Under the pieces are notes generated by a model. That model was given only the letters and a program-made list of their open reading frames with translations, was not told the origin of the DNA and did no database searches. A stretch of DNA of 13,240 bases from a virus. Positions within the stretch are counted from its first letter, which is position 1; each line of letters opens with the position of its first letter. The position numbers and the translations under genes are program-made. The stretch lies in IMG/VR virus record IMGVR_UViG_3300045988_131623; one strand, written 5' to 3'. Positions 1 to 13,240 of this stretch are shown one piece after another.

Positions 1-251
1 GTGTGTGACGGACACTTTTCCCCAATTTGTCCGCGAGTGACGGACACAGCTCGAACATTCTGTCCGCGACAGACAAACACAAACCGCCCAGTCTGTCCGC
101 GGCGAACGCACACTAAACCAAACATATGTTCGAAATGGCTCCGCTCCCTCCGGTCGCTCCGCCCATGAGTTAGTAGCATTTAACTCTGACGGGAACAAAG
201 TTAGTTCCAACTAACTCACTCGCGAAAAAAGAGGGCAACCGAAGTCACCCT
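1..251. repeat. Left inverted terminal repeat (ITR) of a linear protein-primed genome
   Basis: Positions 1-251 are the exact reverse complement of 12991-13240, verified base by base, except A6 (225-230) versus A5. The ITR begins 5'-GTGTGTG. It contains gtgacggacac at 5-15 and 37-47, and TGTCCGCG(A/G) at 28, 61 and 94. Confidence 0.95.
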
Positions 252-389: not shown

Positions 390-2486
390 TTATCCCTGAT
401 TTTCAATAATTTTCTGTTCATCCCACTTTAACCTTTCCTGTGTTATAAATCTGTCCCAATTTCCAACAGATGCCAAAAGATACATGTACTCCAACGAAAG
501 ACCTATTTCATACGTTGATTCTCGTAGCACAACATTTGAACGAATTTCAATTCGATGTTCTGATGAATCATCTGTATAGTAAGTTCCATAGTCACTGTCA
601 TTGTACACTGATTCCAACTTACCCGAATTACGGAATACGAAACCAACATTGAAGTTTTCGATTGTTCCCATTTCTCTCGCTCCTGCTTTCTTGGGTACTC
701 CTGCGATTGTAATTTTAAATGTCCCGTCTTGTCTAGTGTATGCATACTTTTTCGCTCCTAATGTTTTAAATTGTTTATATGTTTCTTCATATTCATATAC
801 ACCTAAGTAGTGTGTAATGCCTTTTTTGTCATCGGCATATCCTTTATTCGATATGCTGAGTTCTTTCAGACCCTGATTGTATTCCTCTATCCTTGCCACA
901 ATTCTTTTATAATCATCACGAACAAGGAACTTGACAGAATCAGTGTCACAATATACAAAATTATCTCCAACAATGTTTATCATTTCTTTCAATTTTAATC
1001 TAGCCCATGCAGTCACCCAACAGCCCCACGCATATAACAGGAATGCTTTCTTGTTGTATTTTTCCAACTTTTCACCGATATCAACTATATCTTCTAGTGT
1101 AAAAGCTTGGTCTGGTTCATCCATATAGATAACATCTGGTTTCACTGGATTCTGAGCGCACATACCATATAATGAGTTGATAAGTTCCTTACTTCTCATG
1201 TAGTTTAATTCCTGACCATCAACATTCTTGAGTGATGTTTTTTTATGAAACAAGTCAATGACTAAATCACGAAATGCTTGCGGTAAATATCCATATTTCG
1301 CAATATATACCTGACTAATTTCAACCTCTCCAACATACTCACTCTTAACTATTTTCCAGTCTATATCGTTGAATACATATACAGCCTTGTTAGCACTCAA
1401 TATTCTACCATTATCAACAACCTGACCTGATATCTTAACAGCCTTATCGAGACTCAAGTAAGGTGCGCCATAGTAAATATCTCTCTGTTGTAAGTTGGTT
1501 ATTGTAAATACAGCTATAAAACAACAGTCTCTTATCTGGCACTTCTTTTCTAGTTCACCAATATCTGTTATCATTCTAGGAGTAAAAGCACTCATAGGAA
1601 AACGATAGTTTAACATAACATCTGGATAACTGCTCGCCCTGTCATAACTAGCCACATTCTCAAGAATCTTATTGACATGATATCTGTTTGCGTGTGTGTC
1701 ACCACCGCGGAACTCAAGTCTCAACAGCTTATACACATCAACATCACACATCATAGCTTGTAGTTGGTTATGATTAAATTTTCGCATTGCTTCTTTGGCG
1801 AGTCTTCTAACATAACCCGTGGAAGTTAATGGTAAAGAATACAAAGTGTCATTTTCCATTCTCATTCGCACTTGCATAGATTCCAACAGACCAACAACGT
1901 CATTACAACAGTACTGCAATTCTTCTGTTGTCATTTCAGTCCACGGGTAACGCTTCTTTGAATAGTCAAATTCAACACCACTAAGCTTTTGGTGAACAAC
2001 ACCCATATCCCTAGTGAAAGCGTCCAGACTCTTGTTGGTCTGTATATAAGAACATCGAAACTGTACTCCGTCAATATCGGCTCTGACAACCTTTCTAGAC
2101 TTTAGGGCAAATATTTTGTCTTTTTGGAAAGGTAACCAGTGACGCATGAATTGGAATTCATAACTGAGGTTATGTACCCAAACCAAAACCGTAATCCCCT
2201 CATGGTAAAAACTGTCAAGTAACTTAGTGAATTGTTCCCATGTTCTACCAAAACAGTACCATATATTCCCGTTTCTTAAATCCATGACAGCAAATTGCCA
2301 TATATACATAATACTCTGTTCAACATCGTCAAGATAAGTTGTTTCAATATCGAAAGCACACATGCAGTTGCGGAATAATGTCTTATCTGATTTCTTTCTT
2401 TTACTGTAGTTTCTTGCAATTGGTATACTTTTGATAATGTCAGAAACGCACTCTCTTTGGACTTCTTTTACGGAATTCTGATTCAT
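390..2486 (-). CDS. Protein-primed family B DNA polymerase (phi29 gp2-like)
   Basis: Exo I FDIETT, Exo II HNLSYEFQF, Exo III YCCNDV, pre-motif A ASSYP, motif B KELINSLYG, motif C YCDTDS and KxY GAKKYAY are all present in phi29 order. The start is ambiguous: TTG 2537, ATG 2525, ATG 2486 (GGAGAG 13 nt upstream, chosen here) or ATG 2363 just before DIETT. All but 2363 overlap the upstream ORF in another frame. Confidence 0.9.
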   Translation of the reverse strand: MNQNSVKEVQRECVSDIIKSIPIARNYSKRKKSDKTLFRNCMCAFDIETTYLDDVEQSIMYIWQFAVMDLRNGNIWYCFGRTWEQFTKLLDSFYHEGITVLVWVHNLSYEFQFMRHWLPFQKDKIFALKSRKVVRADIDGVQFRCSYIQTNKSLDAFTRDMGVVHQKLSGVEFDYSKKRYPWTEMTTEELQYCCNDVVGLLESMQVRMRMENDTLYSLPLTSTGYVRRLAKEAMRKFNHNQLQAMMCDVDVYKLLRLEFRGGDTHANRYHVNKILENVASYDRASSYPDVMLNYRFPMSAFTPRMITDIGELEKKCQIRDCCFIAVFTITNLQQRDIYYGAPYLSLDKAVKISGQVVDNGRILSANKAVYVFNDIDWKIVKSEYVGEVEISQVYIAKYGYLPQAFRDLVIDLFHKKTSLKNVDGQELNYMRSKELINSLYGMCAQNPVKPDVIYMDEPDQAFTLEDIVDIGEKLEKYNKKAFLLYAWGCWVTAWARLKLKEMINIVGDNFVYCDTDSVKFLVRDDYKRIVARIEEYNQGLKELSISNKGYADDKKGITHYLGVYEYEETYKQFKTLGAKKYAYTRQDGTFKITIAGVPKKAGAREMGTIENFNVGFVFRNSGKLESVYNDSDYGTYYTDDSSEHRIEIRSNVVLRESTYEIGLSLEYMYLLASVGNWDRFITQERLKWDEQKIIENQG

Positions 2487-2946
2487 ATTCGCGATATCTC
2501 TCCAATATTTTTTGTGATGGTTCATTAGTGTGTTCAAGGTATATATCGGCGGCTTTATCGCTGTCGTATATGATATCTTCGGAATGTGTTCTTACAAGAT
2601 TCATAAAATCATAGAACTTTGATGCTTGTCTCCAATTCTTGAACTGATTAGTCCCAAACGTAATATTTAGTCTTTCAACTGCCGCCTTACGCTGTCGTTT
2701 TCTCTCAGCTATCACAAATGTCTTGTTCTTCAATGCCGCTTCTACTTCACGAATTGCCATTTCCAAGTTACGTTTAGACTTAATCTTTGAAACAACTGGA
2801 ATTCTAGGTTCAATATAAGCCCTCGCCGCTTCTACGTCTTTCGCGTAAGCACTTTTAGAAACTTTTGCTATTTGACCTGTAAGTTTCTTTCTCAACTCTC
2901 TGTATTTGACTTCTAGTTGTATTCTACTTGCAGATTTCTTTGCCAT
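2440..2946 (-). CDS. Short basic protein immediately upstream of the polymerase; putative terminal protein (TP)
   Basis: The ATG at 2946 is preceded by AAAGGAG. The protein is K/R-rich, about 168 aa. The segment NQFKNWRQASKF resembles the phi29 TP segment QFNKWKEQASSF as recalled. Its position directly 5' of the polymerase is canonical for a TP. It is shorter than known TPs, hence moderate confidence. Confidence 0.5.
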   Translation of the reverse strand: MAKKSASRIQLEVKYRELRKKLTGQIAKVSKSAYAKDVEAARAYIEPRIPVVSKIKSKRNLEMAIREVEAALKNKTFVIAERKRQRKAAVERLNITFGTNQFKNWRQASKFYDFMNLVRTHSEDIIYDSDKAADIYLEHTNEPSQKILERYREYESEFRKRSPKRVRF

Positions 2947-3097
2947 ATTTTCCACACTCCTTTCCTATTAAAGAGAGTATCACATTCTCTCTCAATACTA
3001 TCATTAATGCATTACTTCTTGAAGTACCCAGTTTAAAAGCAAGTTCATCAAGGTTTTTCAAGATATCCTCTTGAAAATTAACACTCACTGTTTTCAT
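2924..3097 (-). CDS. Ribbon-helix-helix (CopG/Arc/MetJ-type) transcriptional regulator, 57 aa
   Basis: This ORF is not in the supplied track. ATG 3097 is preceded by AAAGGAGAAAACT. The protein is MKTVSVNFQEDILKNLDELAFKLGTSRSNALMIVLRENVILSLIGKECGKYGKEICK, with a beta-strand followed by the G-T-S-R-S turn and helix typical of RHH. Its 3' end overlaps the TP-like start by about 20 nt in another frame. Confidence 0.6.
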   Translation of the reverse strand: MKTVSVNFQEDILKNLDELAFKLGTSRSNALMIVLRENVILSLIGKECGKYGKEICK

Positions 3098-4074: not shown

Positions 4075-4437
4075 ATGAATATGAATATTATTAAAACAAA
4101 TATCAAAGACAATGAGTGGGACATGAATCTGAGTTATGACATGTTTGAGTCCCCGGACAGATTACGTGGTGCTGATTTGAAAGGAAAACAGGTTCACATT
4201 GACAAATTCTGTTTATATGAAGAAGAAAACGCAGATGGTGAACTGGTAAAAGTTCTTACCGTATCTACCAACGAAGGTCATGTTTTCGCAACAACTTCAG
4301 CGGCATTTGTTCGCACATTCGACAGAATTATGGAACTCGCAAAACGTTGCAACGTTGTAGATGTGTGTATCGAAATCGTTACAGAACGTAGCAAGAACAA
4401 CCGGGAGTACATCACCGCAAAATATGTCAAAGAATAA
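4075..4437 (+). CDS. Putative single-stranded DNA-binding protein (phi29 p5-like)
   Basis: The protein is 120 aa. The segment LTVSTNEGHVFATTSAAF closely resembles the phi29 p5 segment TTIFAADGSLYSAISKTV as recalled. Size and context fit. Confidence 0.5.
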   Translation: MNMNIIKTNIKDNEWDMNLSYDMFESPDRLRGADLKGKQVHIDKFCLYEEENADGELVKVLTVSTNEGHVFATTSAAFVRTFDRIMELAKRCNVVDVCIEIVTERSKNNREYITAKYVKE

Positions 4438-5497: not shown

Positions 5498-5592
5498 CGT
5501 ATAGGGAAAACAAAAGTCCGTGGCACAAGGACATACAGCGGAACTGTAGTGCGAGGATTCGTCCAATCCATGATACGGACTTTCCCTATATT
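5498..5592 (+). ncRNA. Candidate structured RNA element in the 128-nt gap after the ATPase gene
   Basis: The 5' segment 5499-5522 pairs with the 3' segment 5574-5591: TATAGGGAAA/TTTCCCTATA (10 bp), a 6-nt bulge, then GTCCGT/ACGGAC. That is about 16 bp enclosing roughly 50 nt that contains further short helices (GGAC..GTCC, GGATT..AATCC). There is no ORF and no obvious promoter or terminator. Confidence 0.2.
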
Positions 5593-5823: not shown

Positions 5824-6146
5824 ACATATCAGCAGAAATCATTGCAAAAACATCTGAAAGCGTAAAGGGATATATGCTTCATCCGCACACGGATGTATAC
5901 GGCGAATTAAAAGTTGATACCAAAAACCTTGACTTGATGTTACGCGATGCGCCGACTTATGACAGCAATGTGATCGCTTCTATGCCGAAAGGCAGTATAT
6001 TTTTTGGATATGGATTTACTGATTCCACCCTTAAATGGGTACTCGGACAGTATACCATGCCGAACGGAAAAATGATTGCAGGATTCGCCCACATTGACTA
6101 TTTAATCAGAATTAGAAAGGAGAATAAAAGACATGACAATGGATGA
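5820..6146 (+). CDS. Stand-alone bacterial SH3 (SH3b) domain protein; putative cell-wall-binding module
   Basis: The segment LKVDTKNLDLMLRDAPTYDSNVIASMPKGSIFFGYG...KWVLGQYTMPNGKMIAGFAHIDYL matches the SH3_3/SH3_5 pattern (LNVRsgPs..s.vig.l.kG..v....ngW.kv...G..Gyvh..Yl). A TTG start at 5820 is coupled to the upstream stop. An alternative ATG at 5874 is preceded by AAAGGGA. Confidence 0.6.
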   Translation: MNISAEIIAKTSESVKGYMLHPHTDVYGELKVDTKNLDLMLRDAPTYDSNVIASMPKGSIFFGYGFTDSTLKWVLGQYTMPNGKMIAGFAHIDYLIRIRKENKRHDNG

Positions 6147-6642
6147 TATTATCGCACTCGCGGGTGCGGGATTTACGAAAAATGACATTATTTCATTAAT
6201 TAACACAGCACCAGCACCAGCACCAGCACCAGCACCAGCACCAGCACCAGCACCAGCACCAGCACCAGCACCAGCACCAGCACCAGCGGTACAGCCAAAC
6301 ATGGGAATGCCGCCAGTTCCAGTGGGAGCGATGGCACAGCAGACAGTCACACCACCAGAATTATTACAGGCACAGCTCACAAGTCCGGCAATGGCAGGAC
6401 AGGCTCAGAGTCAGATGTTAGACTATGCTTTTCAGCAGGGAAATTATGCAGGGAGTCCAACACAGAATGTAGTAGGGCGGCAGTTTCCGAACAGTGATCA
6501 GTTGACAAATTCCATCAATGCGCTTACCAGAGCAGTACAGGCGAATGGAATCACACAGAATCTTGCAGGAGTTAATCATGTTCCGACTGTCGACGAAATG
6601 ACAGCGGCTATTATTAATCCACCTAGTGTGGTGAAAGGATGA
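6133..6642 (+). CDS. Protein with a (Pro-Ala)13 linker in the scaffold position upstream of the MCP gene
   Basis: AAGGAGA lies 10 nt upstream. The N-terminal helical motif is DDIIALAGAGFTKNDIISLI. A 26-residue (AP)n tract follows, then a Q/A/N-rich C-terminal half. The gene lies immediately 5' of the MCP gene, as the scaffold gene gp7 does in phi29. Confidence 0.65.
   Translation: MTMDDIIALAGAGFTKNDIISLINTAPAPAPAPAPAPAPAPAPAPAPAPAPAVQPNMGMPPVPVGAMAQQTVTPPELLQAQLTSPAMAGQAQSQMLDYAFQQGNYAGSPTQNVVGRQFPNSDQLTNSINALTRAVQANGITQNLAGVNHVPTVDEMTAAIINPPSVVKG
6208..6285. repeat. Perfect hexanucleotide tandem repeat (GCACCA)x13
   Basis: The repeat was counted directly: 78 nt with no interruptions. It encodes (Pro-Ala)13 in the plus frame. 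Confidence 0.95.
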
Positions 6643-12990: not shown

Positions 12991-13016
12991 AGGGTGACTT
13001 CGGTTGCCCTCTTTTT
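12991..13016 (+). terminator. Intrinsic terminator for the rightward (late) transcript, embedded in the inner edge of the right ITR
   Basis: The plus strand reads AGGGUGAC-UUCG-GUUGCCCU-C-UUUUU. It starts 6 nt after the appendage gene stop. It is the mirror image of the left-end terminator. Confidence 0.6.
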
Positions 13017-13240
13017 CGCGAGTGAGTTAGTTGGAACTAACTTTGTTCCCGTCAGAGTTAAATGCTACTAACTCATGGGCGGAGCGACCGGAGGGAGCGG
13101 AGCCATTTCGAACATATGTTTGGTTTAGTGTGCGTTCGCCGCGGACAGACTGGGCGGTTTGTGTTTGTCTGTCGCGGACAGAATGTTCGAGCTGTGTCCG
13201 TCACTCGCGGACAAATTGGGGAAAAGTGTCCGTCACACAC
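12991..13240. repeat. Right inverted terminal repeat (ITR)
   Basis: It is the reverse complement of 1-251 except for one A fewer in the homopolymer run. Confidence 0.95.

Follow-up and report, generated by a model that had tools for sequence, protein, structure and literature searches.

Truncated ends and phased palindromic boxes in the inverted terminal repeats of a phi29-like gut phage

Introduction

Where does the genome of a protein-primed phage known from a metagenome begin, and what do the repeated boxes near its end do? Both questions are raised by the first 135 nucleotides (nt) of IMG/VR virus record IMGVR_UViG_3300045988_131623, a stretch of 13,240 nt that is referred to as the window. 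The window covers all or nearly all of the genome of a small phi29-like podophage from the gut. It is linear double-stranded DNA with inverted terminal repeats (ITRs), as a phi29-type protein-primed genome has. The record begins gtgtgtg at the left and at the right end. A preliminary description took this for the start of the genome, with a (GT)3 terminal reiteration that suggested a priming step of 2 nt, and read the repeated boxes behind it as phased recognition sites. Comparison with related phages shows that the record is cut short at both ends, and that the boxes are halves of 19-base pair (bp) palindromes, with a fourth box that spans the edge of the record. Positions 1–135 are interpreted here, with a probability of roughly 60%, as the outer ITR of a phi29-like protein-primed phage cut 17 nt short, in which the boxes would be phased duplex sites for a dimeric sequence-specific factor.

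The true end of the genome

The two recorded ITR copies agree over 229 nt, differ by one extra A in an A6/A5 run, and agree again over 21 nt, as follows.

1..251, unstranded: left ITR copy as recorded, 251 nt; lacks the outermost 17 nt of the true ITR (AAAGTATATACATGTCC), an extension seen in relatives
12991..13240, unstranded: right ITR copy, 250 nt; stops at the same base as the left copy

A polymerase-based search of IMG/VR found 24 related loci, and a search with the last gene was used to recover right ends. In eight related IMG/VR contigs, ten ends reach exactly 17 nt beyond window position 1, and all ten begin AAAGTATA. These ends read 5'-AAAGTATA(T/C)ACATGTCC up to window position 1, and GTGTGTGACGGACAC or a variant of it from there on. 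Six left ends (L002, L003, L007, L008, L010 and L019) start exactly AAAGTATA, and all that reach past window position 1 share that first base. Four right ends (L031, L033, L035 and L039) start with the same sequence, and three contigs carry it at both ends. One of these relatives is nearly identical to the window: L003 (also L384; ERZ773157 NODE_2712) encodes a polymerase 99% identical to that of the window, and the next ~130 nt after its extension equal the window. Because ten ends of these relatives, including that of L003, run 17 nt further, the genome by this comparison continues 17 nt past the record at both ends.

An independent ENA assembly, 93% identical overall, contains 14 of the 17 extra bases and then enters a chimeric join. 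In ENA contig L385 (1–1311), 1.3 kb of unrelated sequence is joined to the phage end at ...AAT followed by GTATATACATGTCC, which is a chimeric assembly at the physical terminus. Similar joins are found in L018, L022 and L135, and Nextera adapters in L142, L150, L196 and L224. Tagmentation libraries commonly lose the ends. Among GenBank phages there is a single relative record, the partial MT837434, which is 78% identical and keeps the boxes, and which itself ends ~19 nt short of the window's end.

Judged by these relatives, the true end is 5'-AAAGTATATACA, and its first six bases are AAAGTA. The phi29 ITR is AAAGTA as well (PMC11476376). The complete ends of the window's lineage, including L003/L384, all start AAA, so that the template carries a 3'-end reiteration of at least two identical nt. 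Since the true end AAAGTA gives a template 3' end of TTT (3'-TTTCATATATGT), ordinary sliding-back by 1 nt is expected; phi29, GA-1, Nf and Cp-1 are documented to slide back on 3'-TTT (PMC4974454). The GTGTGTG of the preliminary description is therefore the start of the record only. Its (GT)3 lies inside the genome at true nt 18–24, in a variable spacer, and relatives' ITRs do not conserve a terminal (GT)n. The dinucleotide end that implied a new priming step is an assembly artefact, and seeing it as such averts a false mechanistic claim. It also illustrates that ITR-bearing genomes from metagenomes can be truncated symmetrically at both ends.

The box array

With the missing bases restored, four boxes start at true nt 13, 45, 78 and 111 (window positions -4, 28, 61 and 94), and are spaced by 32, 33 and 33 bp. 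Each is a version of the 19-bp palindrome TGTCCG-N7-CGGACA. Boxes 0 and 1 are perfect palindromes, while boxes 2 and 3 have degenerate right halves. Box 0, TGTCCG-TGTGTGA-CGGACA, occupies true nt 13–31, and the record cuts it after its fifth base; the (GT)3 forms part of its 7-nt spacer.

1..14, plus strand: remnant of box 0, in which G1 closes the left arm TGTCCG, 2–8 are the TGTGTGA spacer and 9–14 the CGGACA right arm
18..26 (true nt 35–43), plus strand: C-run motif TTCCCCAAT between boxes 0 and 1; C20–C22 are invariant in an alignment of 12 termini (A2)
28..46, plus strand: box 1, TGTCCG-CGAGTGA-CGGACA, perfect palindrome
61..79, plus strand: box 2; left half conserved, right half CAAACA, two mismatches
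94..112, plus strand: box 3; right half CGCACA, one mismatch
13129..13147, 13162..13180 and 13195..13213, minus strand: mirror boxes 3, 2 and 1 in the right ITR, from the palindrome search
13227..13240, minus strand: mirror remnant of box 0 at the right end

The palindrome is restricted to the ITR. Copies with up to two mismatches occur only there, except for one match with two mismatches at 5515, which is the best of the matches elsewhere in the genome; all of these have two or three mismatches. The inverted GTCCG/CGGAC pairs of the preliminary description are confirmed as the two arms of this palindrome. The motif TGTCCGCG at 28, 61 and 94, together with its mirror copies, gives 6 matches where 0.14 are expected, and none of 200 shuffles reaches 6. 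The ITR is also richer in guanine and cytosine (GC) than the rest of the genome, as previously described, with 52.6% GC both in 1–135 and in the whole ITR versus 38.7% in the genome body.

Conservation among relatives

The 12 termini of A2 show which parts of the boxes are retained. TGTCCG and ACGGACA are conserved, while the trailing CG(A/G) of TGTCCGCG(A/G) and the full 11-mer are strain-specific. The 11-bp direct repeat GTGACGGACAC, noted earlier at 5–15 and 37–47, is thus present in the window, but relatives conserve only its ACGGACA; likewise, TGTCCGCG(A/G) is present above chance, but only its TGTCCG is conserved. The spacer of box 0 reads CCGTACA, TCTCACA or TGTGTCA in relatives, between flanking hexamers that are invariant in A2. 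In a larger set of 24 distinct termini, used for a stem-pair analysis, TGTCCG and CGGACA are invariant or nearly so and both spacers vary freely. Across 11 stem pairs in these termini there are no compensatory changes, while seven cells break pairing and three give G-U. Since the stems are almost invariant without compensatory changes and the spacers are free, the half-site sequence itself, and not merely the ability to pair, is under selection.

The array is not confined to close relatives. At least 548 polymerase relatives in IMG/VR were confirmed by an alignment-based scan. A scan of IMG/VR with the pattern TGTCCG-N7-CGGACA-N10-16-TGTCCG found at least 120 stretches, later dereplicated, most of them at the ends of contigs of 12.5–17.5 kb. 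Among the matches listed, after dereplication, 34 distinct ends have the start of box 0 at nt 13 and 41 truncated ends have it at nt 1–12; it is never at nt 14–16. Contigs that run past an end with box 0 at nt 13 do so into Nextera adapters or into unrelated or chimeric sequence. The terminal 12-mers vary by lineage and include AAAGTATATACA, AAACATATATAC, GCG(A/T)TTATCTCA, CGCCTATATACA, GTGGAATACTCA, GTGATAATCACA and GGGTACAATACA. Because box 0 keeps its position while the terminal 12-mers differ, nt 1 of these contigs can with strong support be taken as the physical end. A box 0 that starts at nt 13 can serve as a marker for locating true genome ends in assemblies.

The lineages that bear the boxes have polymerases 33–65% identical to that of the window and genomes of 28–45% GC. 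The window's group has distances of 32/33/33 between GTCCG motifs, and L085 has 32/33/33/33/32; between CGGAC motifs the distances in L111 are 31/34/33, with 32 and 33 also among those of L070. Further lineages have a spacing of 21–23 bp. The two ranges, 31–34 and 21–23 bp, correspond to about three or two helical turns.

Other lineages have a similar layout with different boxes. L024, whose polymerase is 44–45% identical to that of the window, has a palindrome, a C-run and then palindromes every 31 bp, in which the box is TTTGTGCA-N3-TGCACAAA. L254 and L044–L048 have yet other box types around the same C-run, and in L045–L047 the repeats are direct rather than inverted. Similarity of the polymerase or of the terminal protein (TP) was considered as a predictor of box type and rejected: the L024 polymerase is closer to that of the window than group B's is, yet the boxes of L024 differ.

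The terminal triplets of sister lineages are AAA, GGG, GCG, CGC, GTG and GTG (L084, L127, L134, L193, L198, L149 and L070), with base 1 equal to base 3 throughout. Those ends that are not homopolymers would fit Bam35-like jumping-back from position 3 to position 1, and are the sole place where a 2-nt step might occur.

A search of the available literature found no description of this box architecture. Conserved and precisely positioned boxes in a widespread group of uncultured protein-primed phages offer concrete sites at which origin recognition outside the phi29/p6 paradigm can be probed.

Function of the boxes

The origin would be organized as an AT-rich terminal 12-mer followed by the four-box array, with the C-run TTCCCCAAT between boxes 0 and 1. 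A dimeric protein would bind the duplex boxes, which at a distance of three turns fall roughly on the same helical face. Once bound, it could mark the origin, position or recruit the TP/polymerase complex, and help to open the terminal 12 bp. The array would thereby act as an auxiliary origin, like the NFI/Oct-1 sites of adenovirus or the nucleation sites of phi29 p6. The sequences show the truncation, the true end and the palindromes with their conservation, fixed position and confinement to the ITR, whereas binding by a protein and a part in replication are inferred. Duplex sites for a dimer fit the data best because the half-sites are conserved, lie at a fixed distance from the end, occur at both ends, are restricted to the ITR and are helically phased, and because there are no promoter-like sites. 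No sigma-70-like promoter is predicted within the ITR, and the promoter count of the whole region equals that of shuffled sequence; the scanner also missed a terminator at 225–251 that was later supported by folding.

Several observations weigh against this interpretation. The centre-to-centre distance of the half-sites is 13 bp, which is not a whole helical turn. The invariant arms are compatible with a hairpin, and folding predicts that boxes 0 and 1 form hairpins in the single strands. Box type follows neither polymerase nor TP similarity in a simple manner. No box-binding protein was identified, and no small open reading frame (ORF) has a p6 family match in Pfam or PHROGs. In this respect the recognition sites of the preliminary description stand in part: the boxes are conserved in relatives, and the 31–34 and 21–23 bp spacings recur in independent lineages, but the suggested p6-like partner was not detected. 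Finally, the evidence is wholly comparative and comes from metagenome assemblies.

[quoted passage not shown] They would form hairpins of 6–7 bp beside a 12-nt single-stranded 3' tail, and would be recognised by the TP/polymerase or protect the end, loosely like the telomere palindromes of Streptomyces. Hairpins are predicted at both boxes on both strands, and the 130-nt terminus folds better than its shuffles (z = -3.2 for the top strand and -2.1 for the bottom strand). Moreover, palindromy is kept in L024 and L254, where the box sequence differs, and the loop sequence is free. However, the covariation test gave the structure no support, as changes in the arms are uncompensated. The right arms of boxes 2 and 3 are degenerate while their left halves are conserved, and the related lineages L045–L047 have direct repeats. 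The stems are also short and marginally stable.

A role of the boxes in regulation or as RNA is improbable. As operators they would serve a repressor of the phage or the host, for instance one coupled to a LexA-like box at 119–132, or they might belong to an outward small RNA analogous to pRNA. The LexA-box-like palindrome is conserved and stands beside the array; in Cp-1, an outward promoter within the ITR is annotated in the record, and the phi29 pRNA gene lies 147–320 nt from the left end (PMC11476376). However, the ITR has no predicted promoter, and outward transcription is blocked by a strong terminator at 251–225. A scan of the whole window against Rfam at E <= 1 gave zero matches, and hence no pRNA or other known RNA in the ITR, and there is no covariation. 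In all lineages among the matches listed, box 0 lies 12 nt from the physical end, which points to a function related to the end.

It is very improbable that the array is a functionless by-product of tandem duplication of a 33-bp unit: three 27-nt units at 33-nt spacing are indeed 70–74% identical in tandem, but the half-sites are kept in highly diverged lineages, and also in a genome of 28% GC, while flanks and spacers diverge, and their position relative to the end is fixed. A genome that truly ends 5'-GTGTGTG and primes with a 2-nt jumping-back step is scarcely credible, even though the sequence stands at both ends of the record and jumping-back is known in adenovirus and Bam35 (PMC4974454; PMC5175343), because ten related ends, including one from a near-identical phage, reach AAAGTATA, the cut falls inside a conserved palindrome, and the (GT)3 is not conserved.

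Candidate binding proteins and terminal protein

If the boxes are duplex sites for a dimer, their reader could come from the phage, as either the TP/polymerase complex or an unrecognised protein, or from the host, as a conserved factor. Two adjoining genes bear on this choice.

390..2537, minus strand: polymerase (PF03175, phrog_1907)
2440..2955, minus strand: candidate TP, 171 amino acids, directly upstream of the polymerase

The polymerase gene encodes a protein-primed family-B enzyme (PF03175, E = 4e-17, above the gathering score; phrog_1907, E = 1e-65). The family of the 171-amino acid ORF, defined with an iterated hidden Markov model, adjoins the polymerase in 88 of the loci examined and in all lineages looked at. 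Its sole invariant residue is Ser132, in an (I)YDSD motif. Because it always stands beside the polymerase and has a single invariant serine, this ORF is a good TP candidate, with Ser132 as the putative priming residue. The family has no significant similarity to the TPs of phi29 and Cp-1 or to PDB sequences.

The TP-like proteins of phages that share the box are only 13–28% identical. Since the box is extremely conserved despite this divergence, a slowly evolving reader would be expected, which might be a protein of the host or some conserved polymerase/TP surface. A host factor would need to be broadly conserved, because the GC range of the phages is wide.

A further candidate was considered and rejected. 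A 57-amino acid RHH/CopG-like ORF (2924–3097, minus strand) overlaps the start of the TP-like gene; its match to RHH_1 is weak (E = 0.008, under the gathering score), and it also matches a PHROG repressor. By phmmer it is found in the window's own group only, and L134, L149 and L024 have RHH-like ORFs in that slot. As a box binder it counts against the duplex-site interpretation rather than for it: group C has the boxes without an RHH protein, with an unrelated small protein in the RHH slot, and L024 has an RHH protein with different boxes. It is more likely a transcription regulator, because its slot corresponds to that of phi29 gene 4.

A scan of bacterial genomes with the box pattern gave mostly chance matches in GC-rich genomes and did not reveal the host. 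One metagenome-assembled genome of a mouse-gut Lachnospiraceae, MGBC119923 (L287, L331, L338 and L343), contains a multi-copy intergenic repeat with TGTCCG-N7-CGGACA arrays. This may be accidental or may point to a host protein that recognises the palindrome, and is a lead only.

A more general scheme is tentative and rather doubtful. It would make the array part of a modular origin common to a large clade of uncultured phi29-like phages from the gut, consisting of a 12-bp AT-rich end, the 19-bp palindrome at nt 13–31, a C-run at about nt 35–41 and further boxes spaced by two or three helical turns. If it were true, these phages would have a sequence-specific origin recognition that is absent from the phi29 paradigm. 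The reader would then be a conserved host DNA-binding protein (as NFI/Oct-1 are for adenovirus) or an unrecognised DNA-reading surface of the TP/polymerase, and the LexA-like box beside the array might couple replication to the SOS state.

Comparison with known protein-primed systems

Known protein-primed systems each share part of this arrangement. As in the origins of phi29, Nf and GA-1, the terminal AAAGTA (identical to the phi29 ITR) is combined with a PF03175 polymerase that has a TP-like gene directly upstream, and the gp16 ATPase, major capsid protein and connector belong to the gene set shared with phi29. Unlike in phi29, the ITR is ~268 bp rather than 6 bp long, the palindromes from nt 13 have no phi29 counterpart, and neither a p6 homologue nor an Rfam pRNA is found.

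The array has been likened above to the p6 complex of phi29, which likewise involves periodic arrays of several sites near both ends, with a proposed role in opening the terminus (PMC4974454). However, p6 reads bendability with a period of 24 bp, whereas the period here is 32–33 bp with invariant hexamers, and a p6-like protein was not detected.

Cp-1 has a long ITR (236 bp) that starts AAAG, as here, and carries TTCCCCCAAT at nt 34–43, compared with TTCCCCAAT at true nt 35–43 in the window. In Cp-1, sliding-back on 3'-TTT is stepwise (PMC4974454). Its ITR is AT-rich and without TGTCCG palindromes, in contrast to that of the window; its polymerase is only marginally similar, and similarity of its TP is not detectable.

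The adenovirus ITR has a terminal core, then a palindromic site that binds a dimer, and more ITR sites that stimulate protein-primed initiation. The window resembles it in this layout of core and auxiliary sites, since its ITR contains a palindromic site of the dimer type whose distance from the end is constant. Adenovirus differs in being a eukaryotic virus with known host-factor binders and a 3-nt reiteration with jumping-back, while here there are four boxes at a spacing of about three turns. With Bam35 (3'-ATA; PMC5175343), the similarity lies in the sister-lineage ends GCG..., CGC... and GTG..., in which base 1 equals base 3; the window's own lineage, unlike Bam35, ends AAA. On these sequence comparisons, the system resembles a phi29/Cp-1-type origin at its extreme end and is adenovirus- or p6-nucleation-like further inside, and it is neither a p6-type complex nor a dinucleotide jumping-back origin.

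Other elements of the inverted terminal repeat

Further inward, the ITR contains a palindrome and a terminator.

119..132 (mirror 13109–13122), unstranded: conserved palindrome CAAACATATGTTCG; 13/14 match to the Firmicute LexA box CGAAC-N4-GTTCG
225..251 (mirror 12991–13016), minus strand: intrinsic terminator, UUCG-loop hairpin plus T6; -16.8 kcal/mol, z = -2.4

The consensus CGAAC-N4-GTTCG is that of the Firmicute LexA box (PMC4551915). The number of LexA-like matches in the window alone is not above chance, and ACATATGTTCGA is invariant in A2. LexA-like boxes may indicate SOS coupling, as in the tectivirus GIL01. Among relatives, L021 has a perfect GAAC-N4-GTTC core, and the left end of L134 reads GTTCT. 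The first ~140 nt of group-C relatives (L215, L223, L235 and L242) contain one to three copies of TTTTCGAACAT(A/G)TGTTC (TTTTCGAACATATGTTC repeats) upstream of a consensus early promoter.

The C-run, TTCCCC(C)AAT at ~35–43 nt from the true end, is also present in lineages with other boxes (L024, L044–L048, L053 and L254). The Cp-1 motif at nt 34–43 (L178/L263) has been mentioned; C-runs are likewise found in C1 (L260, 22–43) and Av-1 (L261, 34–47). The UUCG terminator forms the inner edge of the ITR and ends the outward operon at each end of the genome.

Two further repeats lie between the LexA-like box and the terminator. At 138–162 there are ~2.8 copies of a GC-rich 9-nt tandem repeat, GCTCCGCTC, of which both copy number and sequence vary strongly among close relatives. 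At 166–218 there are inverted repeats, GAGTTAGT...ACTAACTC, in which a GTTAGT-N4-ACTAAC core is conserved in relatives while the loops are variable.

Genome organization

The gene content of the window supports the earlier assignment of the ITR to a protein-primed phage. In addition to the PF03175 polymerase, it encodes homologues of a gp16-type packaging ATPase, of a phi29-type major capsid protein and of a connector, together with a tail lysozyme and a GDSL esterase-like tail protein. The early genes are read leftward and the late ones rightward, so that both operons are directed outward. A 120-amino acid ORF at 4075–4437 (plus strand) has a weak likeness to the phi29-type SSB protein (Pfam PF17427, E = 0.058; PHROG SSB, E = 5e-4). 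In the ORF at 6133–6642, which is located immediately upstream of the capsid gene, 13.7 units of a perfect (CAGCAC) repeat at 6206–6287 code for an (Ala-Pro)n linker.

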